The notes under the pieces: model-generated
What the model was told of the DNA's origin: nothing
The model's input: the letters and a program-made list of their open reading frames with translations, nothing else
Database searches by the model: none
Translations under genes and position numbers: made by a program
Shown: piece by piece, positions 2,740 to 55,667 of the stretch
How positions within the stretch are numbered: the first letter of the stretch is position 1
Layout of the letters: the number at the start of each line of letters is the position of its first letter
Origin: Mustelus asterias
Taxonomy: Eukaryota
Direction: 5' to 3'
Assembly: GCF_964213995.1 (NCBI RefSeq)
Contig: NC_135805.1
Span: 76,818,001-76,882,000 of the forward strand
DNA: 64,000 nt

Positions 2740-4136
2740 AATGGGCAGTATGGACAGTGACTGCTGATGGGCTAGTGGCAAGCTGCAGCAAGCCCGGTGG
2801 GGGCCGCAGGAGAAGGAGGGAGCAGAGACCCCGGCAGTTCTGTGCATGAGTGTCATTTGAACAGATGTCGGACACCGTGTTCTGCCGATGTCTCCGCCTC
2901 CGAAAGGAGACAGTGCAACACCTGTGCCACTTGTTGCAGGACCTGGCACCTAGAGGCGGTGGGGGGGGGGGGGGTGGTGAGGGTGTGCACCCACTCTCGG
3001 TGCTGTTAAATTGACATCAGCTCTGAACGTTTATGTGACTGGCTCCTTCCAGACCCCGAGCGGAGATGTCGGTGGCATCTCCCAATCAGCTATGCACACC
3101 TGTGTCAAGCCGGTCACAGAAGTCCTGTATGCCCGGGATGGGCAGTACATCGAATTTAAATTGGGCCAGGCCCATCAGGAAGCCCGGGCTGTAGGGTTCG
3201 CAGCCATCACGGGCATGCCTAACGTGCAGGGGGGTCATCGACTGCACCACGTCGCCCTCAAGGCCCCGAATGAGGCATGCGAGGACAGCTAGGGATGCCC
3301 TGATCACCCAGTTGGTTCAGTGGCTAGGGGCTTGTGTCTGTGGGTTCCATCCCCCATCCCCATCCAAGTCCTTCTATCTCCTACAGAATCCATGGAGATT
3401 CATCAACAGAAAGGGGTTCCACTCCCTGAATGTTCAACTAGTGTGTGACCATAGTATGAACATTATGCACGTCTGTGCAAGACACTCAGGCAGCGTGCAC
3501 AATAGATTCATTGTCGGGAGCTCGGACACCCCGGACACATTTGAGGAGGAGCCCAGGCTGCGGGGGTGGATTGTGGGTGATATGGGTTACCCGCTTTGGA
3601 CATGGCTGATGACGCCTGTGCAGAGGCCTGTGTCTGAGGCGGAGTCGTGCTATAATGAGGCCCATGTAGCCACCCGTGCGATAGTGGAGAGGTGCACAGG
3701 GCTCCTTAAAATGAGATTCCAGTGCCTGGACCGATCTGGTGGAGCCCTCCAATACAGCCCTGTGATCTCTTCCCGCATTGTGGTGGTGTGCTGTGCCCTG
3801 CACAACCTGGCTCTGCAGAGAGGTGACCTATTGGAGGAGGAGGACGTGGAGGCTGACCAGCCGGGCATCGCTGGGGAGGAGATCACTCAGCAGGAGGAGG
3901 AAGAAGAAGAGGAGGAGGAAGAAGACGAAGAACACGCCTTGGAACCCCACCCAGGCACTGGAGGGCTGGCAGCTCGAATGAGGCATGCGAGGACAGCAAG
4001 GGAGGCCCTGATCACCCAGTTGGTTCAGTGGCTAGGGGCTTGTGTCTGTGGGTTCCATCCCCCATCCCCATCCAAGTCCTTCTATCTCCTGCAACATTGT
4101 CACACCAGAATGGTGGGCCTGGGTACGCTGCGTTAA
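2740..4136 (+). pseudogene. Harbinger (HARBI1-like DDE) transposase, disrupted
   Basis: Motifs seen: LNVYVTGSFQ, GISQS, QG(VID)CTHVAL (frameshifted), NRKGFHSLNVQLVCD, GDMGYPL..WLMTP, YNEAH..TR..VER..GLLKMRF.CLD and CCALHN. It carries a stop, frameshifts and a 116-bp insertion. Confidence 0.92.
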
Positions 4137-28162: not shown

Positions 28163-28672
28163 CATATCATGGAATCAACCCTTTGAATTGAAGAATATTA
28201 GATATAGTAGATAAAGAAGTCAAGATGCAAGCCTGAGTGTACAATGCCCCTTCGCAGCATTGGAAATGAAATCATTTTACTCTGGCTGCATTTTGTAATA
28301 TGTAATTTCAGGCATGAAATGAGCTTCATTATAGCAAGTGTAAGCTTCATTAGAATTGTTCAATTATTAAGATCATTTGGCCCACTGTGTCTGTGCCAGC
28401 TCATTGAAAGGGCTATCCAATTAGCCTCACTCCCCTGATCTTTCCTCACACCCCTGCAATTTGTCTTCTTTTCAAGTATTTATTTCATTCCATTTGAAAT
28501 TTGCTACTGAATCTGCTTCCACCACATTTTTTCAGGCAATGCATTCTAGCTCAGAACAAATTGCTGCCTAAAATAATTCTCACCTCCTCTCGAATTCTTT
28601 TGCCAATTATCTTGAATCTATATCCTTGTTTACTGACTCTTTACTGAATCACTGAATCACTGAATCTTTACT

Positions 28673-29719
28673 GAATCACTGAAACAACTCTATGATGACA
28701 TCAACAAGTTCCATCCCACCATCAGGCTCACCATAGACTACTCTCCGGAATCGGTTGCATTCTTGGACACGCGCATCTCCATTAAGGACGGTCACCTCAG
28801 CACCTCACTGTACCGCAAGCCCACGGATAACCTCACGATGCTCCACTTCTCCAGCTTCCACCCTAAACACGTTAAAGAAGCCATCCCCTACGGACAAGCC
28901 CTCCGTATACACAGGATCTGCTCGGATGAGGAGGATCGCAACAGACACCTCCAGACGCTGAAAGATGCCCTCATAAGAACAGGATATGGCGCTAGACTCA
29001 TTGATCAACAGTTCCAACGCGCCACAGCGAAAAACCGCACCGACCTCCTCAGAAGACAAACACGGGACACAGTGGACAGAGTACCCTTCGTTGTCCAGTA
29101 CTTCCCCGGAGCGGAGAAGCTACGGCATCTCCTCCGGAGCCTTCAACATGTCATTGATGAAGACGAACATCTCGCCAAGGCCATCCCCACACCCCCACTT
29201 CTTGCCTTCAAACAACCGCACAACCTCAAACAGACCATTGTCCGCAGCAAACTACCCAGCCTTCAGGAGAACAGTGACCAAGACACCACACAACCCTGCC
29301 ACAGCAACCTCTGCAAGACGTGCCGGATCATCGACACAGATGCCATCATCTCACGTGAGAACACCATCCACCAGGTACACGGTACATACTCTTGCAACTC
29401 GGCCAACGTTGTCTACCTGATACGCTGCAAGAAAGGATGTCCCGAGGCATGGTACATTGGGGAAACTATGCAGACGCTGCGACAACGGATGAATGAACAC
29501 CGCTCGACAATCACCAGGCAAGACTGTTCTCTTCCTGTTGGGGAGCACTTCAGCGGTCACGGGCATTCGGCCTCTGATATTCGGGTAAGCGTTCTCCAAG
29601 GCGGCCTTCGCGACACACGACAGCGCAGAGTCGCGGAGCAGAAACTGATAGCCAGGTTCCGCACACACAAGGACGGCCTCAACCGGGATATTGGGTTTAT
29701 GTCACACTATTTCACATAA
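28673..29719 (+). CDS. PLE polyprotein fragment: RT C-terminal/thumb region, Cys-rich linker and GIY-YIG endonuclease (uninterrupted frame)
   Basis: Peptides INKFHPTIRLT, FLDTRI, LYRKPT, IPYGQALRIHRICS, CHSNLCKTC and NVVYLIRC..C...YIGET...LRQRMNEH. Confidence 0.9.
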   Translation, partial: ESLKQLYDDINKFHPTIRLTIDYSPESVAFLDTRISIKDGHLSTSLYRKPTDNLTMLHFSSFHPKHVKEAIPYGQALRIHRICSDEEDRNRHLQTLKDALIRTGYGARLIDQQFQRATAKNRTDLLRRQTRDTVDRVPFVVQYFPGAEKLRHLLRSLQHVIDEDEHLAKAIPTPPLLAFKQPHNLKQTIVRSKLPSLQENSDQDTTQPCHSNLCKTCRIIDTDAIISRENTIHQVHGTYSCNSANVVYLIRCKKGCPEAWYIGETMQTLRQRMNEHRSTITRQDCSLPVGEHFSGHGHSASDIRVSVLQGGLRDTRQRRVAEQKLIARFRTHKDGLNRDIGFMSHYFT

Positions 29720-34654: not shown

Positions 34655-35546
34655 CTTTAAGGCAGTAACAGGACTACAGACAGGATTACAGATTTCTACC
34701 CATTTTTAGTCCATGTACCCATAAACAGATACAGTAAAAGTTTCACTAACAGAATGCTGTCAACAAGCCAATAAGACATCTGCCTACCACACAAATAAAT
34801 AATGTGGTATCTAAATTTCCAGGTACGTAGGACAGACATTCCAACGATTAGTAACTCATATCAAACTGTATGTTCCTTTGCCTGTTCACAGTAGGCACTG
34901 CACTGATCATATTCAACTAACATGTGCATGCAAAACTCAGAACATCATAACTAACATTTTGTGATACGATTCCACGATTGGACACTACTTGCTGGACAAT
35001 TCCGAATGTGCTAAGAATTACACCAACAGCCAATTTAAGATTATCAGTCAGCTGACATGTGGCTCACTTAGACTTGCTAGAAGCTACATACACAGGGACC
35101 TGTCCTCCATGGGCAGAAACAACATGTGCAGGTTTTGTGACTGTTCGAATTAAACAAAAGCATGGGGGTCAAAAGTTCCCTGGTGCATTCTCCATGGTAA
35201 TGTATCACCCAAAGTTGACTTGCCAACCGGTCAACAGACTTTTCTTACGCAGAATAAACTGTTGTTCCCTTTGAAATTTAACATTCTTGTCGCTGTCCTG
35301 ATGAGGTGAAAAGTTTCAATAACTTCTCTCTTTTTTCATCAATATTCAAATTCTGTACTATCAGGCAACTCCTTCTATATTTGTGCAGTGTTTTTATTCG
35401 TCCCATTGGCATTTTAACTTATTTTTCGAATATTTCTCACATGAAGTTATGTGATGCAGAGAATTACCAAGGATGCTGGATGTATATATTTTAAAGACAA
35501 TGATAAGTGTTTGTTTACCAATCTGTCAAAACTGTCATATGATGTG

Positions 35547-35823
35547 TGATGCGCGATTGATCCACACGGGAGACAAGGTCGTACCCGGGAATAAAGACTT
35601 TTATTCACAACAAGAATAGAGCATACTGCTTAACAATACTATCCCAGACTAAGGGCTACTAGGAAGTAGCAGTGACCTTTATACCCCTGTAAGAAGGCAG
35701 GGCCAAACGGAGTGTACCACAGAACAATGCTAACAGGTGGAACACCCCAACCCTAACCCCAACAGCAACACGAATAACATATGTACAAGTACCCATAGTG
35801 GTAACCATCTATGGTTCACCACA
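35547..35823 (-). repeat. Gypsy 3' LTR
   Basis: Direct repeat of 39896-40172, adjacent to the PPT. Confidence 0.97.
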
Positions 35824-35899
35824 TTCACCCCTCCTTTGAAAACAAAGGCCGGCAGGGTAAGGAGACAATACGAACTGTCCATATCTTCACAAGTTTAGC

Positions 35900-38800
35900 C
35901 GTATCGGAGGTCCGCACCGTCTCTGCGACCTCCGCAGTACCGGCTCCGGTGTCGGTTCTGGTGACCGTGGTGATGACCCTCTCTCCGAGGTGGTGTCCAG
36001 TGACTTCTCCAGTTCCTCACACACCTGTGGACCTCAAGGTGGCGACAATCTCCTGGACTCAGGCAAGCTGTACACGGGAGTAAGAGGATTAAGTTGAGGT
36101 CCCGATGCTGGCCGTGTCGAGTCAGGAGGGGAGAGAATGGACAAAGGAATCCTAACCAGGCGTGCGGGAGTGACGGGAATGTCCAGGTCCCCTGCAGGCG
36201 CCAGATCTCTGATAGAGACCGTGTCCTCTCGCCCATCAGGATATGCCACATAGGCATATTGAGGGTTGGCGTGGAGGAGATGGACCTGTTCAACCAAAGG
36301 GTCGGACTTGCGGGCCCTAACATGCCGCCGCAGGAGGACAGGTCCTGAGTACGTCAACCAAGACGGCAGTGAGGTCCCAAAGGAAGACTTCCTAGGGAAG
36401 GTAAACATCCGCTCATGTGGGGTAGCGTTGGTTGCCGTACACAGGAGGGATCGGATTGAATGGAGCGCATCAGAAAGTACCTCTTGCCAACGGGAGACTG
36501 GAAGACCCTTAGACCTCAACGCCAGTAAAACAGCTTTCCAGACTGTAGCGTTTTCTCTCTCGACCTGTCCGTTACCCCTGGGGTTGTAACTCGTAGTCCT
36601 ACTCGAGGCAATTCCCTTAGAGAGCAGGTATTGCCTCAAGTCGTCGCTCATAAATGACGAACCCCTATCACTGTGGATATTACTGGGGTAACTGAACAGG
36701 GTAAAGAGACCCCACAGGGCTTTGATGACCATGGCAGAGGACATATCAGAACATGGGATGGCAAAAGGGAATCGGGAGTACTCATCAACCACGTTGAGGA
36801 AATACACGTTCCGATCTGTAGAAGGAAGGGGCCCCTTGAAGTCGACACTCAGTCATTCAAACGGGCGAGTGGCCTTAATGAGGTGTGCCCTGTCAGGCCG
36901 GTAGAAGTGCGGCTTGCATTCTGCACAAACTTGGCAACTTCGAGTTATCGACCTGACATCCTCGATGGAGTAGGGCAGATTGCGAGCCTTTACAAAATGG
37001 AAAAACCGAGTGATCCCCAGATGGCAGAGATCATTGTGGAGGGCCAGTAACTGGTCCTCCTGCACACTGGCACATGTTCCACGCGACAGGGCATCTGAGG
37101 GCTCATTGAGCTTCCCTGGACGGTACATGATATCATAGTTGTAGGTGGAGAGTTCGATTCTCCACCTCAAGATTTTATCATTCTTTATGTTCAACAACAC
37201 GTTAAAAGGGAAAATCAAGGCCACGGACATCTGGTCCGTGAGCAGGGTAAACCGTTTACCAGCCAAATAATGGCGCCAATGCGTACGGCCTCCACAATGG
37301 CCTGGGCCTCTTTTTCCACAGAGGAGTGCCGAATTTCAGGGCCTTGGAGAGTGCGGGAGAAAAAGGCGACGAGCCTGCCCGCCTGGTTAAGTGTGGCGGC
37401 CAGGGCGAAATCAGATGCATCACTCTCCACCTGAAAGGGGATGGACTCATCGGCAGCGTGTATCGTGGCTTTCGCGATGTCGGCCTTCATCCTTTCAAAG
37501 GCTCGGCGAGCCTCTGTTGTCAGGGGAAAAGAGGTAGATTTTATGAGCGGACGGGCTTTGTCCGCGTAATTGGGGACCCACTGTGCATAGTACGAGAAGA
37601 AGCCTAAGCATCTTCTCAGTGCTTTGATGCTAGTGGGTAGGGGAAGTTCAAGGAGGGGACGCATACGGTCTGGATCAGGGCCGATGACCCCGTTTTCCAC
37701 CACGTATCCGAGGATTGCTAGGCGGTGCTTGCTGAATACGCACTTCTCCTTGTTATAGGTCAGGTTCAGGAGATTTGCAGTGCGTAGAAACTTCTGGAGG
37801 TTGGCGTCATGGTCCTGCTGGTCATGGCCGCAGATAGTGACGTTGTCCAGGTATGGGAAGGTAGCCCGTAGCCCGTTTTGGTCCACCATTCGGTCCATCT
37901 CGCGCTGGAAGACCGAGACCCCATTAGTGACGCCGAAAGGGACTCTCAAAAAGTGGTAGGGACGGCCATCCGCCTCAAAGGCCGTGTATTTGCGGTCCTC
38001 TGGGTGAATGGGGAGCTGGTGGTAGGCTGACTTCAAGTCGATGGTGGAGAACACCCGGTACTGCGCAATCTGGTTGACCATGTCAGATATGCGCGGGAGA
38101 GGGTACGCGTCCAGCTGCGTGTACCTATTAATGGTCTGACTATAGTCTATGACCATCGGGGGCTTGTCTCCAGTCTTGACCACCACGACTTGTGCTCTCC
38201 ATGGGCTAGTGCTAGGTTGGATGACCCCTTCCCTGAGGAGCCGCTGAACCTCAGATCGAATAAAGATCCGATCCTCAGCGCTGTAACGCCTGCTCTTAGT
38301 CGTGATGGGCTTGCAGCCTGGCATGAGATTTTCAAATAGGGAAGGCAGGGTAATTTTGAGTGTCGAGAGACTGCATGTGGAGCGCGCTGGACAATTTGGA
38401 GGCTGCTGTGTTCCCACTGAAAGAGGAGGGAGTGGCCCATCGTACTGCAGGGTCACACTCCTCAGGTGGACCATAAAGTCTAGCCCCAGGAGTACCGGAG
38501 CGCAAAGGTGCGGTAACACGAGGAGCCTGAAGTTCTCATAAACTGTGCCCCGCACCGTTAAGGTTACCACACAGCTCCCAAGAACGACTATAGATCGGGA
38601 CCTCAACGCCATGGAGATTGTCTGCCTGACAGTTTGCACATGGAGAGCGCACCGTTTCACTGTATCCGGATGGATAAAGCTCTCCGTGCTCCCGCTGTCA
38701 AACAGGCAATGAGCCAGACGTCCGTTTACCTCAATGTCCATCATGGACTTGTCGAGTCTGTGAGGCTTGGCCTGGTCCAGGATGATTGACGCCACTGTTG

Positions 38801-39851
38801 GATCCCAAGTGTAACTGCAGGCAGCTGAGATAGCCGACGACGAGGACCCCTGCTGGTCTTCTGCGGCCGGTGTCGACCAAAATGGCTGCGCCCACGGATC
38901 GCACGTGGTTGATGATGTCGAAAATGGCGGCACCCGCAGGTTGCACGTGGCTTGCGTCGTCGTCATAGGAAATGGCGGCGTCCGTGGCTCGCACGTGGCT
39001 GAAGACATCGACAAGGCCGGAGACGAGGAGATGGATCCTGGGGAGTCACACGCAGCACTGCTGGGCTTGGAAGGGGTCTTTGCTCGGCACAGTTTTGCAT
39101 AGTGCCCTTTCTTTCCACAGGCGGAGCAAAACACCGTCCTGGCCGGACATCTCTGACAAGAGTGCTTCGCCAATCCACAGAAATAGCACCGTGGGCCTCC
39201 AGGAGCTGCCGCAGCCGTCAGGTCTGAAGCTGAGAGCATGATCGCGCAGTTCCGAGGAGCCGCCGAGTACAGTTGAGGCGGTGGCTGTGCTTGCCATGCT
39301 GTTCCCACGTGGTCAGTGGGGTAGGTTTCGAGATTTCTGGAGGCCGTTTCCATTGCATCGGCCAATTCTACCATCTTAGCCAGGTCCAAGTTACCCTGTT
39401 CGAGCAGCCGCAGGCGAATATAGGATGAGCCGATTCCCGCCACGAACGCGTCTCGGATAAGATCGTTGGTGTATTGAGTAGCCGACACCTCCTTGCAGTT
39501 GCAGGCTCTGGCTAGCTATTGAAGTTCGCGCAGGTACTGTCCCGTAGTTTCACCGGGCTGCCGCCGTCGAGTGGCTAATAGGTGATGAGCATGGATTTCG
39601 TTCGGCTGTTTATGGTACAGCTTCTTGAGTAATTCGATGGCCTCTTTGTAATTTTGGGAATCACAGATTGTTGCATACACAGTGTCGCTCACCCTGGCGT
39701 GGAGGACCCGCAATCTGTCGGCGTCGGACTGGACTGCTGTCGAGACGTCGATGTAATCTTCAAAACACTTCAACCAATGGTCGAAAGTGTTTGACACTCC
39801 AGCTGCACGCGGATCTAAGGTTAGCCGATCGGGTTTCAGCATCTACTCCAT
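35900..39851 (-). pseudogene. Gypsy single-frame gag-pol, disrupted
   Basis: Zinc knuckles (CSACGKKGHYAKLC), protease LFDSGS, RT IDLKSAYHQ / PFGVTN / YLDN, RNase H SDASD, integrase HHCC and D..D..E (VDFKG, HSDRG, QVERE). In-frame stops near 39844, 39517 and 36854; frameshift near 37280. Confidence 0.95.
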
Positions 39852-39895
39852 TTTTCTTCGAACAAAATTTTTGATTTTATTGTTGTGAATAAAAT

Positions 39896-40172
39896 TGATG
39901 CGCGATTGATCCACACGGGAGACAAGGTCATACCCGGGAATAAAGACTTTTATTCACAACAAGAATAGAGCACACTGCTTAACAATACTATCCCAGACTA
40001 AGGGCTACTAGGAAGTAGCAGTGACCTTTATACCCCTGTAAGAAGGCAGGGCCAAACGGAGTGTACCACAGAACAATGCTAACAGGTGGAACACCCCAAC
40101 CCTAACCCCAACAGCAACAAGAATAACATATGTACAAGTACCCATAGTGGTAACCATCTATGGTTCACCACA
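39896..40172 (-). repeat. Gypsy 5' LTR (TATAAA and AATAAA on the minus strand)
   Basis: Direct repeat of 35547-35823, upstream of gag. Confidence 0.97.
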
Positions 40173-40989
40173 ATGTGCAATACCTTTCTCTCAGCTGTTC
40201 CAACCTATGTTCAAACTAAATATAAAATAATGACAGAAAGTACATAAAGGAGCATTCAGAAACTTTAATCTTTTGTCCCTAATATTCATCCTAGGTTCAT
40301 CTTAGTTGTAGACAGCTGGCATGCTCCAGTATTACAGATTTCTACCAATTTTTAGATTGTTATATGCACATAAACAGATACAGTTTGGGGAAATAAGACT
40401 TGTTTTTCTCTTTGAGATGTTAATGTAGTGATTTGCAAAGCATTTTGGTTGACAGACTCCTCTTCAAATGGATTTGTAATCAGGGACCCCCTGATACATT
40501 TATATTGTATGCCATATAATACGTACAACAGGAAAGTGTTGCATGTTCAGAGTCCTTTTAAGAAAACGGGTATCTATTAGGGTAGCATTTTGAAGACTAT
40601 TTCATGGATGTAGGCACTGATGAAACCAATCAGGCAAACCAAAGATAAAGGATTGAAATGACTCCACTAACATTTTGGTCCATGTCAACTGCATTGCACT
40701 GAATGTGGCTAAACATTGTCTGTTTATTGCATGCATATCCAACCAGTTCACAGATCACATCGAATACAAACATCTATTGGTCAAATCATTATTACCAGCA
40801 TTTTCAATCTATTTAGATTTTTAATAGGCTTAAACTGGAGTGTTACTTTAATTTAAAAAGTTGACTTTCCATAAACAGACCAATTTTCTATCTTCCAATT
40901 CTATTACAGAGTACTCATTTGAACAAGACACCTTTGGAAATACTTTACAGACTTGTGAAAATGCAATCCAGTTTCTCAGTGTTACTTAA

Positions 40990-47729: not shown

Positions 47730-47936
47730 CTGGAAAAATATAATCAACATTTTTATAGCAGAATTTCAACAATACACTTACTGGAGTATAAACAAATACT
47801 GAAATATAACAGAAACAGCATGATCCAATGACTAGAGATGAGTGATATTATTCTACATAACAATCACGCTCACAGTACCCTAAACTCTTTATTAAATTTT
47901 TAACAAGAAAGAAGAAAATATTAAAACATTTTTAAT

Positions 47937-48815
47937 ATGGTCGTCCGGGAGGCTCCTAGCCTCCCGGACGACCATATCTGTGCTGGGTGTGTTGAGCTGC
48001 GGTTCCTAAGGGACCATGTTAGGGAACTGGAATTGCAGCTCGAGGACCTTCGCCGGGTTAGGGATAGTGAGGAGGTCATTGACAGGAGCTATCGGCAGGT
48101 GGTCACACCGGGACCACGGGAGGAGGGTAACTGGGTAACAGTGAGGAAGGAGAAAGCTCGGTTGATGGTGAGCACCCCGGTGGATGTGCCCCTTAATAAT
48201 AAGTACTCCTGTCTGAGTACTACTGGGGTGGACAGCCCACCTGGGGGAAGCAGCGGTGGCAGTGTCTCTGGAGCTGAGCCTGGCCCAGTAGTGCAAAAGG
48301 GTAAGGAAAGGAGGGTAGTGCTAATTGGGGACTCTACGGTGAGGGGGTCAGATAGGCATTTTTGCGGACACAGACGGGACTCTCGGATGGTGGTTTGCCT
48401 CCCTGGTGCAGGGGTCCGGGATGTCTCTGGTCGAGTCCCAGAAATCCTGAAGGGGGAGGGAGAGGAGCCGAAAGTCGTGATGCATATAGGTACTGCTGAC
48501 ATAGGTAGGAAGAGGGAAGGGGTCATGAAAAGAGAATATAGGGAGTTAGGTAGACAGCTGAGAAAGAGGAATGCAAAGGTAGTAATCTCGGGATTGCTGC
48601 CTGTGCCGCGGGAGAGTGAGAACAGGAATCGGTGGAGAATGAATGCGTGGCTGAGGGACTGGAGCAAGGGACAAGGATTTGGGTACTTGGATCATTGGGA
48701 CCTCTTTAGGGGCAGGTGTGACCTGTTTAAAAAAGACGGGTGGCACTTGAATCCCAGGGGGACCAATATCCTGGCGGGAAGGTTGGCTAAGGCTACTGGA
48801 GAGACTTTAAACTAG
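47937..48815 (+). CDS. CR1 ORF1 (partial zinc finger/coiled coil plus SGNH/GDSL esterase-like domain), 5'-truncated
   Basis: HICAGC, a leucine heptad, VLIGDS, CLPGA, HIGT.D and DGWHLN..G motifs. Confidence 0.92.
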   Translation: MVVREAPSLPDDHICAGCVELRFLRDHVRELELQLEDLRRVRDSEEVIDRSYRQVVTPGPREEGNWVTVRKEKARLMVSTPVDVPLNNKYSCLSTTGVDSPPGGSSGGSVSGAEPGPVVQKGKERRVVLIGDSTVRGSDRHFCGHRRDSRMVVCLPGAGVRDVSGRVPEILKGEGEEPKVVMHIGTADIGRKREGVMKREYRELGRQLRKRNAKVVISGLLPVPRESENRNRWRMNAWLRDWSKGQGFGYLDHWDLFRGRCDLFKKDGWHLNPRGTNILAGRLAKATGETLN

Positions 48816-48820
48816 AAAGG

Positions 48821-51734
48821 TTGGGGGGAGGGAATCGAAATGAGGGGACTGAGAGCGAGGAGGTTAGCTCGCAAATAGATAAGGAATGTAAACAGGGTAA
48901 GAGGGAGGTTAGACGAGTGATGGAGAAGGGAAGTGCTCAGGCTGAAGGTCTGAGATGTGTCTATTTTAATGCCAGGAGTGTAGTGAATAAAGTGGATGAG
49001 CTTAGAGCGTGGATTGCTGCTTCGAATTGTGATGTGGTGGCCATTACGGAGACTTGGATGTCTCAGGGACAGGACTGGGTGCTTCAGGTGCCGGGTTTTA
49101 GATGTTTCAGGAAAGACAGGGAGGGAGGCAAGAGAGGGGGGGGAGTGGCACTGTTGATCAGGGATAGTGTCACGGCTGTAGAGAAGGCGGACGCCGTGGA
49201 GGGATTGACTACGGAGTCTCTGTGGGTGGAGGTTAGGAACAGGAAGGGGTCGGTAACGTTGCTGGGTGTTTTCTATAGGCCGCCCAATAGTAACAGAGAT
49301 GTTGAGGAGCAGATGGGGAAACAGATCCTGGAGAGATGTAGGAATAACAGAGTTGTCGTGATGGGAGATTTTAATTTCCCAAACATAGATTGGAATATCC
49401 CTAGGGCTAGGGGTTTGGATGGAGAGGAGTTTGTTAGGTGTGTCCAGGAGAGTTTCCTGACACAGTATGTGGATAAGCCTACTAGAGGAGAGGCTGTACT
49501 TGATCTGGTGCTGGCTAATGAACCTGGACAGGTGGAGGATCTCTCGGTGGGTGAGCATCTTGGGGATAGCGATCATAATTCTATCTCCTTCACGATAGCA
49601 TTGGAAAGAGATAGGATCAGGCAGGCTAGGAAAGTGTTTCTCTGGAGTAAAGGGAAATACAGTGTCATCAGGGAGGAAATTAGACGGGTAAATTGGAAGG
49701 AGGCATTCTTGGGGAAAAGTACCGAAGGAAAGTGGAGGATTTTCAAGGAATGTTTGTCTGGAGCTCTGCATGACAACGTTCCGATGAGACAGGGGGGTGT
49801 TGGTAGGGTACGGGAACCGTGGTGCACGAAGGTTGAGATGAACCTGGTGAATAAGAAAAGAGAGGCGTACAGAAGGTTCAGAGAGCTAGGAGGTGTTAAG
49901 GATTTAGAGGAGTATACGGGATGTAGGAAGGAGCTTAAGAAGGAAATTAGGAGAGCGAGAAGGGGGTCATGAGAAGGCCTTGGCGGGTAAGATTAAGGAG
50001 AATCCCAAGGCTTTCTACAAATATGTCAAGAGTAAAAGGATGAGATGTGAAGGCATAGGACCCTTAAAAGGTGAAGGGGGAAAAGTTTGTGCGGAACCGT
50101 TAGAAATGGCGGAGCTGCTTAATGAATACTTTACCTCGGTATTCACGGTGGAAAGGGATCTGGGTGGTTGTACTGCTGGTTTGCGGTGGACAGAAAGGAT
50201 CGAGCATGTGGACATAAAGAAAGAGGATGTGTTGGAACTATTGAATGGCATCAAGGTTGGTAAGTCGCCGGGACCGGATGGGATGTACCCCAGGTTACTG
50301 TGGGAGGCGAGGGAGGAGATTGCGGAGCCTTTGGCGATGATCTTTGCATCGTCGATGGAGACGGGAGAGGTTCCGGAGGATTGGAGGATTGCAGATGTGG
50401 TCCCTATATTCAAGAAAGGGAACAGGGACAGCCCGGGAAATTACCGACCGGTGAGTCTAACCTCAGTGGTTGGTAAGTTGATGGAGAGGATCCTGAGAGA
50501 CAGGATTTATGATCATCTAGAGAAGTTTAGTATGATCAAAAGTAGTCAGCACGGCTTTGTCAAGGGCAGGTCGTGCCTTACGAGCCTGGTTGAGTTCTTT
50601 GAATATGTGACCAAACACATTGACGAAGGAAGAGCGGTGGATGTGGTCTATATGGACTTCAGCAAGGCGTTCGATAAGGTCCCCCATGCAAGACTTCTTG
50701 AGAAAGTGAGAGGGCATGGGATCCAAGGGGCTGTTGCCTTGTGGATCCAGAACTGGCTTGCCTGCAGAAGGCAGAGAGTGGCTGTGGAGGGGTCTTTCTC
50801 TGCATGGAGGACAGTGACCAGTGGAGTGCCCCAGGGATCTGTTCTGGGACCCTTGCTGTTTGTCATTTTCATAAATGACCTGGATGAGGAAGTGGAGGGA
50901 TGGGTTGGTAAGTTTGCTGACGACACCAAGGTAGGTGGTGTTGTGGATAGTTTGGAGGGATGTCAGAAGTTGCAGCGAGACATAGATAGAATGCAAGACT
51001 GGGCGGAGAAGTGGCAGATGGACTTCAACCCGGATAAGTGTGTGGTGATCCATTTTGGCAGATCCAATGGGATGAAGCAGCAGTATAATATGAAGGGTAC
51101 CATTCTTAGCAGTGTAGAGGATCAGAAGGACCTTGGGGTCCGGGTCCATAGGACTCTTAAATCGGCCTTGCAGGTGGAGGATGCGGTCAAGAAGGCGTAC
51201 GGCGTACTGGCCTTCATTAATCGAGGGATTGAGTTTAGGAGTCGGGAGATAATGCTGCAGCTTTATAGGACCCTGGTTAGACCCCACTTGGAGTACTGCG
51301 CGCAGTTCTGGTCACCTCATTACAGGAAAGATGTTGAAGCCATTGAAAGGGTGCAGAGGAGATTTACAAGGATGTTGCCTGGATTGGGGGGCATGCCTTA
51401 TGAGGATAGGTTGAGGGAGCTTGGTCTCTTCTCCCTGGAGAGACGAAGGATGAGAGGTGACCTGATAGAGGTTTACAAGATGTTGAGAGGTCTGGATAGG
51501 GTAGACTCTCAGAGGCTATTTCCAAGGGCTGAAATGGTTGCTACGAGAGGACACAGGTTTAAGGTGCTGGGGGGTAGGTACAGAGGAGATGTCAGGGGTA
51601 GGTTTTTCACTCAGAGGGTGGTGGGTGAGTGGAATCGGCTGACGTCGGTGGTGGTGGAGGCAAACTCGTTGGGGTCTTTTAAGAGACTTCTGGATGAGTA
51701 CATGGGATTTAATGGGATTGAGGGCTATAGATAG
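48821..51734 (+). CDS. CR1 ORF2 (APE endonuclease plus RT) with one +1 frameshift at the G run 49962-49966
   Basis: NARS, ITETW, YRPP, GDFN and SDHN; then NYRPVSLTS, DFSKAFD, PQGSVLGP and FADD. The two ORFs join if one G is removed (RARRGHEK). Confidence 0.93.
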
Positions 51735-52107: not shown

Positions 52108-54373
52108 TTAGAACCATAGAAAACCATAGAAAATTACAGCTCAGAAACAGGCCAGTTGGCCCTTCTTGTCTGTGCCGAACCATTTTATGCCTAGTCCCAC
52201 TGACCTGCACTTGGACCATATCCCTCCACACCCCTCTCATCCATGAACCCGTCCAAGTTTTTCTTAAATGTTAAAAGTGACCCCGCATTTACCACTTTAT
52301 CCGGCAGCTCATTCCACACTCCCACCACTCTCTGCGTGAAGAAGCCCCCCCTAATATTCCCTCTAAACTTTTCTCCTTTCACCCTTAACCCATGCCCTCT
52401 GGTTTTTTTCTCCCCTAGCCTCAGCGGAAAAAGCCTGCTTGCATTCACTCTATCTATACCCATCAAAATCTTATACACCTCTATCAAATCTCCCCTCAAT
52501 TTTCTACGCTCCAGGGAATAAAGTCCCAACCTATTCAATCTCTCTCTGTAACTCAGCTTCTCAAGTCCCGGCAACATCCTTGCGAATCTTCTCTGCACTC
52601 TTTCAATCTTATTTACATCCTTCCTGTAACTAGGTGACCAAAACTGTACACAATACTCCAAATTCGGCCTCACCAATGCCTTAAATAACCTTACCATAAC
52701 ACTCCAACTTTTATACTCGATACTCCGATTTATAAAGGCCAATGTACCAAAGGCACTCTTTACGACCCTATCCACCTGTGACGTCACTTTTAGGGAATTC
52801 TGTACCTGTATTCCCAGATCCCTCTGTTCAGCTGCACTCTTCAGAGTCCTACCATTTACCCTGAACGTTCTTCTTTGGTTTGTCCTTCCAAAGTGCAATA
52901 TCTCACACTTGTCCGCGTTAAACTCCATTTGCCATTTTTCAGCCCATTTTTCTATTTGGTCCAAATCCCTCTGCAAGCTTTGAAAACCTTCCTCACTGTC
53001 CACTACACCTCCAATCTTTGTATCATCAGCAAACTTGCTGATCCAATTTACCATATTATCATCCAGATCATTGATATAGATGACAAACAACAATGGACCC
53101 AACACCGATCCCTGCGGGACACCACTAGTCACAGGCCTCCACTCAGAGAAGCAATCCTCCACAACCCCTCTCTGGCTTCTTCCATTGAGCCAGTGTCTTA
53201 TCCAATTTACTACCTCCCCATGTATACCTAGCGACTGAACCTTCCTAACTAACCTCCCATGAGGGACCTTGTCAAAGGCCTTGCTGAAATCCAGGTAGAC
53301 AACATCCACCGCCTTCCCTTCATCCACTTTCCTGGTAACCTCCTCGAAAAACTCTAATAGATTGGTCAAACATGACCTACCACGCACAAAGCCATGTTGA
53401 CTCTCCCTAATAAGTCCCTGTCTATCCAAATATTTGTAGATCCTATCCCTTATCACACCTTCCAATAACTTGTCCACCACCGACGTCAAACTTACTGGCC
53501 GATAATTTCCAGGAGTTCTTTTGGAACCTTTTTTAAACAACGGAACAACATGAGCCACCCTCCAATCATCCGGCACCTCCCCCGTGAATACGGACATTTT
53601 AAATATGTCTGCCAGGGCCCCTGCAAGTTCAACACTAGCTTCCCTCAAGGTCCGTGGGAATACCCTGTCCGGTCCTGGGGATTTATCCACTCTGATTTGC
53701 CTCAAGACAGCGAGCACCTCCTCCCCTTTAATCTGTAAAGCTTCCATGGCCTCCCTACCAGTTTGCCCTATTTCCGTAGACTCCATGCCCGTTTCCTCAG
53801 TAAATACGGGTGCAAAAAAACCATTTAGTATCTCCCCCATCTCTTTTGGTTCCATACACAGTGTACCACTCTGGTCTTCAAGAGGACCAATTTTATCCCT
53901 CACTATCCTTTTGCTCCTAACATACCTATAGGAGCTCTTTGGATTTTCCTTCACTCTGTCTGCCAAAGCAACCTCATGTCTTCTTTTAGCCCTCCTGATT
54001 TCCCTCTTAAGTAGCTTCTTGCACTTTTTATACTCCTCGAGCATCTGATGTGTTCCTTGCTGCCTGTACATTTCATACAACTCTCTCTTCCTCTTAATCA
54101 GTGTTACAATCTCCCTCGAGAACCAAGGTTCCTTATTCCTATTTACTTTGCCTTTAATCCTGACAGGAACATACAAACTCTGCACTCTCAAAATTTCTCC
54201 TTTGAAGGCCTCCCACTTTCCATTTACATCCTTACCAGAGAACAGCCTGTGCCAATCCACACTTCCCAGATCCCTTCTCATTTCATCAAATTTGGCCTTT
54301 TTCCAGTTCAGAACTTCAACCTGAGGACCAGATCTATCCTTATCCACGATCAGGTTGAAACTAATGGCATTGT
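52108..54373 (-). mobile_element. 5'-truncated CR1/HER1 LINE with an uninterrupted ORF2 frame (52191-54373)
   Basis: Complete RT motifs (FADD) and a (ccatagaa) tail. The first ~27 aa of the listed 754-aa ORF come from flanking DNA. Confidence 0.96.
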
Positions 54374-55667
54374 TGTTCCATTTAGATTGTTTTCCCATTT
54401 TGCATCCAAAACCTACCACCACAGAATTGAAAATAGAGGATGGTGATTCAATCATTATCTGTTCTAAACTCTGTCAGATGAAGACAGAGATAATTGACCA
54501 ACTTGGCTATCTACCTCTAGCTCTGTATTTTCCTATGTTTCAAACATTTATCTAATTTTCCTTGATAGTTTTTATACATTGCTGGCACAATTTCAACCTT
54601 TGGGTTAGACTATACAATTTTGCAGTTTCCTATTCTGTTCGTTACATCCCCTAGATCAATAAACAGCCTAAGAATTTTCTTTGGCGCTCGTGGGGTCCCC
54701 AGAATTTTCTCAGCTCACAGCACACGTTCTCGAGTGCCAGCCCACAAGTGTTGCCTTTCATTATAACAGGCCCAAGTGCTAGCTAGCTCAGTGTGGGAGC
54801 TGGCTGAATTTCCACATTCTGAATTGATGAACCACTGCAGGGCATCTAATTGGCACCCCTGCCCCTCAGATGGCATGGTAATGAGATCTGGATCGTGAGA
54901 TGAGCTCAGGCCTCACACTGGTACAACCAGACAGACAGAGGTTAGTCTGTTGACTTCACACCTATTTTGGATACTTCTTGGCTCTTGAAGAATCTTACAG
55001 GTTCATAACTCTTTGGCCTGTCACTATTGAATGCCACATAGAAAAGAATCCTGTAGCAAAATGCTTATGGGCTATTCCAGTCACAATTGTGCAATTCTGT
55101 TGTGGGGAATGGGAGAATTGTATCCAGGAAGAACTGCACCCATCTCCTCAGAAATTTGCATGTGTGGATATGATTCATGTGGGTCCAATTTTAACAAACA
55201 GTGGGGCTTTCCAAAGGGACGATATATTAGGAAAATTTGGATATATTTTTTCGAATTTTGAACCTTTGTTCTCTTCTGGCCCAGATTTTATGGTCAGCAG
55301 CAAAGGAAGGCTTCATGACTTCAAAGAAAACTGCAGCGAGAAATTCAACTTGCCCACTGTTTAATTGATTGTAGCTTTGGTTAAAAAGGATTCCCAGTGT
55401 TAAGCAGCAGAGATGTCATCATGTTGTATAAGCAACTGATCATATTAAAGAACTGTTATGGGAAGCAAACCAAGAAAGCCAAAGCACCAATAATCAAATC
55501 ATTTCTTAAACTTTAATAGAAAACAAAATAATTGTTGGGTGTTAAAGTAGAAACTGAAATATCAATTACAATCATTTTTAAAATCTAGTCATTAGAAATA
55601 TAGTAACACAGAAAGAAAAGCAGCACAGAGAGGACATTTTGCCCATGTCCATGCCTGCATTAATCAT

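Follow-up and report, generated by a model that had tools for sequence, protein, structure and literature searches.

A primer-binding position complementary to the element's own LTR in a branch of animal Ty3/Gypsy retrotransposons, and its likely use in tRNA-independent self-priming

The window analysed here, a stretch of 64,000 nucleotides of the Mustelus asterias genome (contig NC_135805.1, positions 76,818,001 to 76,882,000 of the forward strand), carries a copy of a Ty3/Gypsy LTR retrotransposon (Table 1). The hallmarks of this superfamily are all present: TG...CA LTRs, a TSD, a polypurine tract (PPT) and the order gag-PR-RT-RH-IN. The Pfam domains (PR, RT, RNase H and integrase) follow one another in Gypsy order, and among solved structures the Ty3 RT is the best match to the window RT. 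The two CCHC-type motifs presumably resemble those of Mag-type Gag proteins. Judged by its LTRs, which are 98.9% identical, the element is a recent insertion. Remnants of other mobile elements lie on both sides of it, including a plus-strand LINE remnant that we take to be of the CR1/L2 type.

Table 1. Coordinates of the features discussed, numbered from the first letter of the window
Feature	Position	Strand	Remark
Ty3/Gypsy LTR retrotransposon copy	35547..40172	-	4,626 bp, coding region broken
5' LTR	39896..40172	-	277 nt, TG...CA
3' LTR	35547..35823	-	277 nt, 3 differences from the 5' LTR
TSD CACAT, 5' side	40173..40177	-	
TSD CACAT, 3' side	35542..35546	-	
Polypurine tract	35824..35837	-	adjoins the 3' LTR
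gag-pol remnant	35887..39851	-	two CCHC-type motifs, PR, RT, RNase H, integrase
Stops in the gag-pol remnant	39843-39845, 39516-39518, 36853-36855, 36034-36036	-	
Frameshift in the gag-pol remnant	near 37215-37280	-	
PBS position	39880..39894	-	15-mer, exact complement of the LTR arm, no TGG
One-base spacer, LTR end to PBS position	39895	-	A here; A in 30/33 representatives
LTR arm, candidate self-primer 3' end	39948..39962	-	15 nt, AATAAA at 39949-39954
Arm copy in the 3' LTR	35599..35613	-	no partner 15-mer downstream
LTR-internal hairpin GAATAAA/TTTATTC	39938..39955	-	predicted to hide AAUAAA in either LTR
TATA box TATAAA	40027..40032	-	sequence motif
Initiator-like TTAGTCT	39995..40001	-	predicted start 39999
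LINE remnant	47925-51734	+	esterase-like ORF1, endonuclease, RT
LINE remnant, RT	52191-54473	-	
DDE_Tnp_4 transposase fragment	3195-4136	+	
Weak GIY-YIG match	28664-29719	+	possibly Penelope-like

On the element strand, the 5' LTR ends in ...CATCA and is followed by A (39895) and then by TTTTATTCACAACAA (39894-39880), which is the exact reverse complement of LTR positions 39962-39948. The sequence check thus agrees with the first-pass annotation, according to which the 5' LTR is followed not by TGG but by a 15-mer complementary to the AATAAA-bearing segment of the same LTR. Host DNA stands directly after the 3' LTR, so the arm there is without a partner. When the upstream 200 nt were shuffled, the longest complement averaged 3.2 nt and never exceeded 9 nt, and 15 nt was reached in 0 of 1000 shuffles. 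The stability of the whole 161-nt region is not unusual (z -1.48). Self-priming has been predicted in published work from an LTR complement of at least 10 nt that begins 0-5 nt past the 5' LTR (PMC6317226); here the complement is 15 nt long and the offset 1 nt.

We then asked whether relatives of the element keep the same arrangement. A first look at this genome gave 4,235 candidate places. Diverged loci were collected from the same genome by means of three diverged Gag N-termini, from metagenome contigs (the best 80 of 364) and from genome contigs (13 loci); a scan of viral contigs for relatives of the element found none. Among the 233 loci looked at, a Gag start preceded by 160 nt or more was present in 178; dropping 6 duplicates left 172. 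Anchored on CA-N-T(T/C)T, and therefore presuming that pattern, the count over these 172 unique loci gave 123 that pair at 12/12 positions and 156 at 11/12 or better; 3 loci had no anchor. The corresponding numbers are 98 and 125 of 134 in the same genome, and 25 and 31 of 38 outside it. The 172 loci show 26 distinct perfect 12-mers, each matching its own LTR. When the longest inverted repeat upstream of gag was sought without an anchor, most loci gave the same site. Among close copies, the exact pair is present in 28 of the 30 best loci of this genome (the window included), with one change in an arm and one in a PBS; these 30 are too similar to reveal covariation.

The ends of 16 true elements could be set by paired LTRs together with a TSD. 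All 16 have a 5-bp TSD and a start A-T-(T/C)-T, and TGG is found in none. Five further candidate LTR pairs (L033, L042, L069, L111 and L112) were rejected as contig-end or coding overlaps. In 29 of 33 hand-picked family representatives, an exact complement of 12-18 nt runs from PBS position 1, a count inflated by the choice of well-paired copies; shuffles of the representatives reached 12 nt in 2 of 33,000 cases. The exceptions are L051 and L108, which have 1-2 internal mismatches, L060, which is out of register, and the unpaired L065; in L108 the 3' LTR copy restores the match, as seen by eye. Ten control Gypsy elements with a TGG PBS show an LTR complement of 4-7 nt only. The register is fixed (LTR...CA, one spacer base, then TTT), and the loop between arm and PBS measures 24-68 nt in paired families (53 nt in the window copy). 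The 3' end of the arm faces the LTR end, which is the polarity required of a primer. An A-run closes the arm, and the next bases are mostly GCC or ACC. These bases are strongly conserved in 28 families though unpaired with the PBS, and they often open a short stem (ACCT...AGGT); we regard them as a candidate cleavage determinant.

Several loci of this collection have peculiarities of their own. Just upstream of gag in L141 (G000:C15:73573219-73576485), an inverted R-U5-PBS copy stands in place of the normal 5' LTR end; the join is at a TGATG/CATCA microhomology. L012, L016 and L017 (G000:C2495, 9.5-18.6 kb) follow one another at intervals of about 4.35 kb. A PPT-like flank precedes the LTR in two of these three copies, and the arrangement fits a tandem array sharing LTRs. 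L111-L115, L117, L119, L120 and L123 are animal-type LTR retrotransposons on contigs filed in bacterial MAGs, where they are probably host contamination.

In an alignment of 10 subfamily representatives from the M. asterias genome, 97.3% of the cells pair; 9 of the 15 pairs have two-sided changes and none has a one-sided change. This degree of pairing was matched by 0 of 500 shuffles, and slid registers pair at 44-51%, controls that are inflated by the kinship of the sequences. RNAalifold, unaided, predicts the PBS-arm helix from the same alignment. Far-diverged metagenome families (RT about 44-66% identical) follow the same pairing rule with other sequences. The compensatory changes that the first-pass annotation had suggested looking for, between the post-LTR 15-mer and the LTR segment, are thus seen on both sides across the lineage, in a polarity and a register that suit a primer.

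Pair types were counted at positions 1-12 in 161 copies (the count omits 6 duplicates, 3 copies lacking an anchor, and 8 that carry indels or rearrangements or do not pair). There were 1,886 Watson-Crick pairs, 7 G-U, 16 A-C and 23 others. Neutral decay would be expected to produce G-U and A-C at similar frequencies, and structural selection more G-U. Since wobbles are not enriched, strict Watson-Crick pairing appears to be kept. Such strictness fits a primer duplex. It is no proof of templating, because Ty1 and Ty3 inherit the PBS instead of copying the primer (PMC7472051); in light of that paper we downgraded the reading that perfect pairing proves the PBS to be copied from its primer.

Of the 7,990 candidates scored in the protein search, 1,311 matched. 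Sharks and rays supply the nearest named proteins (65-82% over RT-RH); further relatives from anemone, coral, sea cucumber and the nematode Trichinella are known as proteins, their PBS not having been seen. In an RT-RNase H tree of 56 rows, 30 self-complementary rows are split from 6 TGG rows with 100/100 support, in a sample seeded by the query, with few and long-branched outgroups and without chromoviruses; 5 loci with segments too short had been dropped. The named shark, ray, cnidarian, echinoderm and nematode proteins are placed among the self-complementary rows. Outgroup elements from the same genome, which by PBS and domain order we take to be Mag C-like and Gmr1-like, have TGG PBSs and occupy other branches.

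No chromodomain was detected in any of 7 proteins (the integrase fragment of the window and 6/6 full-length relatives), and none of the 17 chromodomain loci in the genome lay within 1.5 kb of an integrase match. SH3_Tf2-1 matches were considered as possible sushi-type chromoviruses and rejected; either the RT lay downstream of the match, no match to RT was obtained, or the element next to the match belonged to the present clade. The separation from Tf1/sushi would accordingly be based on the missing chromodomain and on geometry, the tree itself being without a chromovirus. The clade probably works like Tf1 self-priming. We nevertheless do not file it under Tf1/sushi, because neither a chromodomain nor the pretzel structure was recovered. 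A search for motifs of the branch in part of the supplementary files of PMC6238403, PMC12471100 and PMC8556966 gave zero matches. No named clade was matched, and the branch may be MolGy or a Repbase group whose PBS has been left undescribed.

The start of the RNA matters for the position of the arm. The first-pass annotation had raised a start near 39962 as a point to check; the TATA box and the initiator predict 39999 instead, which would make the arm internal, at about +38 to +52. Nine of the 10 subfamily representatives of this genome have TATAA at a distance of 83-88 nt before the 3' end of the arm, and in 8 of the 10 a TCAGT or TTAGT initiator follows 31-33 nt past TATAA. The fixed-distance TATA box was seen in families of this genome only and not in metagenome families. 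A separate observation, made by eye, concerns the LTRs of several metagenome families (L048, L074, L107 and L119), where a pyrimidine tract closed by CAG stands about 10-45 nt before the arm. The tract resembles a splice acceptor and could set the RNA 5' end by cis- or trans-splicing.

Folding from the predicted start gave 11 inner pairs of the arm-PBS duplex at a probability of at least 0.97, with AAUAAA fully paired. Both of the local hairpins that had been put forward as competitors exist as sequence, and they differ in folding. For attttatt/aataaaat the predicted probability is at most 0.001, and it was discarded as a switch state; only GAATAAA/TTTATTC competes. In an RNA that begins at the arm, the latter draws level with the main stem, and in the LTR alone, without the 15-mer, it forms at about 0.8 and hides most of the hexamer. 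Because this hairpin is internal to the LTR and is predicted to hide the 3' signal as well, a 5'-specific switch is not predicted for the window family, contrary to the earlier suggestion that AAUAAA is masked only in the 5' LTR. The full 7-bp GAATAAA/TTTATTC hairpin was not seen by eye in other families.

The proposed connection with polyadenylation is supported in part. The arm contains a canonical hexamer in 24 of 31 families (AATAAA in 13, ATTAAA in 11), and a compensated change from AATAAA to ATTAAA within the arm was observed. In the other seven families GTTAAA, TTTAAA or GATAAA stands in the arm instead, two of these having a canonical hexamer elsewhere in the loop, outside the duplex; L046 pairs over 14 nt without an AATAAA/ATTAAA hexamer. 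Masking of the 5' AAUAAA is plausible as a by-product, likely a side benefit rather than the reason for the pairing. The retroviral poly(A) hairpin of HIV-1, a virus primed by tRNA, lies inside the repeat and pairs AAUAAA in the 5' LTR. Here AAUAAA is predicted to be paired in the 5' LTR as well, mainly with sequence beyond the LTR, at the PBS position.

Further structure around the duplex was sought by prediction. A stem opening right after the arm exceeds the shuffle mean in 24 of 28 families (0.72 vs 0.38) and is weak in the window family (0.16 vs 0.29 for shuffles). A third 'pretzel' duplex, between post-PBS sequence and the loop, was predicted at p<0.05 in 1 of 28 families, and an extension of the stem beyond the arm was supported in just 3 of 28.

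Self-priming of this general kind is already known. Tf1 provides the demonstrated case, and the literature searched also ascribes self-priming to the Tf1/sushi and Tcn1 chromoviruses and to TAR copia elements of plants. For Tf1, PMC7175516 describes a primer that consists of the initial 11 nt of the transcript and is released by RNase H; it sits within a three-duplex pretzel (bioRxiv 10.1101/2022.12.06.519325). Tf1/Tf2 of Schizosaccharomyces pombe, Tj1 and Tosmo1-3 are counted among the Tf1/sushi self-priming elements (PMC7175516, PMC4600332, PMC5341516, bioRxiv 10.1101/2022.12.06.519325). The present clade shares with this group, as far as these sources describe it, the Ty3/Gypsy domain order and a PBS position that complements the element's own 5' LTR in the same polarity, and in many families a second stem adjoins the primer duplex. 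It differs in that neither a chromodomain nor the third pretzel duplex was detected. Whereas the Tf1 primer is the very 5' end of the RNA, the arm here is predicted to be internal; it usually carries a poly(A) hexamer, ends in an A-run and forms a duplex of 12-18 nt. Self-priming has been shown experimentally in Tf1, and we infer it from sequence for the present clade.

Other elements are similar in part. Plant Tcn1 chromoviruses and TAR copia elements are recognized by the same kind of LTR complement as the one found here, and they belong to another superfamily or branch and to other hosts, the survey in PMC6317226 being of plants. Skipper of dictyostelids, like the present clade, has a pyrimidine-rich stretch in place of a TGG PBS; unlike it, Skipper has a chromodomain and no complement in the left LTR (PMC5006619). 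Metazoan Gypsy clades outside the chromoviruses, MolGy included (PMC6238403), share animal hosts and a single gag-pol frame with the present clade. In the Saci2/lennie group (PMC4558846, PMC12471100), lennie is described with a tRNA-Leu PBS and a mostly 4-bp TSD, in contrast to the lack of a tRNA PBS and the 5-bp TSD of all delimited elements here. Self-priming in this animal branch was not found in the literature searched, which included PMC6934838, PMC3601003 and PMC2774666; the branch may already be catalogued in Repbase or GyDB.

At the level of sequence, what is established is the pairing potential, its register and polarity, the two-sided changes and the absence of TGG, all across a whole RT branch. 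Considering this evidence, we think it likely that the site after the 5' LTR is a PBS for tRNA-independent self-priming. Transcription would begin at the TATA/Inr, some 37 nt ahead of the arm, which would fold onto the PBS across the loop of 24-68 nt. The RNA would then be cut at the 3' edge of the A-run of the arm, probably by the RNase H of the element as in Tf1, and minus-strand DNA would start from the 3'-OH thus freed, the primer being about 50 nt long in the families of this genome. The Tf1 cleavage mechanism is an extrapolation here, because the Tf1 primer is an RNA 5' end and the present arm is predicted to be internal. Given the usual overlap of arm and hexamer, the 5' AAUAAA would be covered by the arm-PBS duplex as well. 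In most families the start codon of gag comes about 0-36 nt past the PBS arm (29 nt here, at 39851), and with a start codon so close the PBS duplex could also affect gag translation.

Three other explanations of the complementarity have to be weighed. A tRNA-derived PBS would stay nearly fixed, and the 26 different perfect 12-mers that match their own LTRs argue against an incidental LTR match with priming by a host tRNA, a tRNA fragment or another small RNA. A family-specific site that always matches its own LTR is, on the sequences at hand, a stronger argument against tRNA than our tRNA screen, in which the longest complement of the 15-mer was 7 nt among 28 distinct tRNA calls, a partial set covering 8 anticodon types. 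The missing TGG in the independently delimited elements and an Rfam scan of 39500-40300 with zero matches point the same way. Half-tRNA priming does exist in copia lineages (PMC6317226), and the small number of tRNA calls leaves this explanation some room; even so, we consider it very improbable. It is less far-fetched, and still improbable, that the duplex serves to hide the 5'-LTR poly(A) signal and that something else primes. Such a function would account for the hexamer in most arms and its compensated change, for a partner 15-mer present solely after the 5' LTR and for the predicted full pairing of AAUAAA in the 5' context. Pairing is kept, however, where the hexamer has been lost from the arm (7/31 families and L046), even with a canonical hexamer lying outside the duplex in two of the seven, which counts for priming. 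Masking should also need neither a fixed one-base register nor strict Watson-Crick pairing, the local hairpin of the window family is predicted to hide the 3' LTR signal as well, and the lineage would be left without any primer site.

The remaining explanation keeps an own-sequence primer and takes it from elsewhere, either from the R copy at the 3' end of the genomic RNA or from a short RNA polyadenylated in the 5' LTR, trimmed to the A-run. Covariation and the tracking of the hexamer by the arm are explained equally well by such a primer, and the arm, which is also present in the 3' LTR and overlaps the poly(A) signal, should lie near natural RNA 3' ends. The intramolecular 5' fold, predicted with high probability for its 11 inner pairs, and a loop kept within the 24-68 nt suited to a local hairpin argue against it, and no precedent was found in the literature searched. 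We therefore regard a primer from elsewhere as improbable to about the same degree as masking without priming.

Self-priming by the arm of the same 5' LTR is thus the reading that we prefer. Its fullest form, an animal Gypsy clade outside the chromoviruses with independent tRNA-free priming, an internal poly(A)-bearing R primer of about 50 nt cut at A-run/GCC, a duplex that also silences the 5' poly(A) site and an escape from silencing by 3'-tRNA fragments, is a tentative proposal that we consider less likely than not. If true, this branch without a chromodomain would represent a further, probably separate origin of self-priming with a different geometry. One would then expect the RNA to be cut where the A-run meets GCC, with a primer of about 50 nt, and the failure of tRNA-based PBS annotation on these elements would be explained. 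The elements would also offer no PBS to 3'-tRNA fragments, which would have a bearing on host defence (background in PMC7472051).
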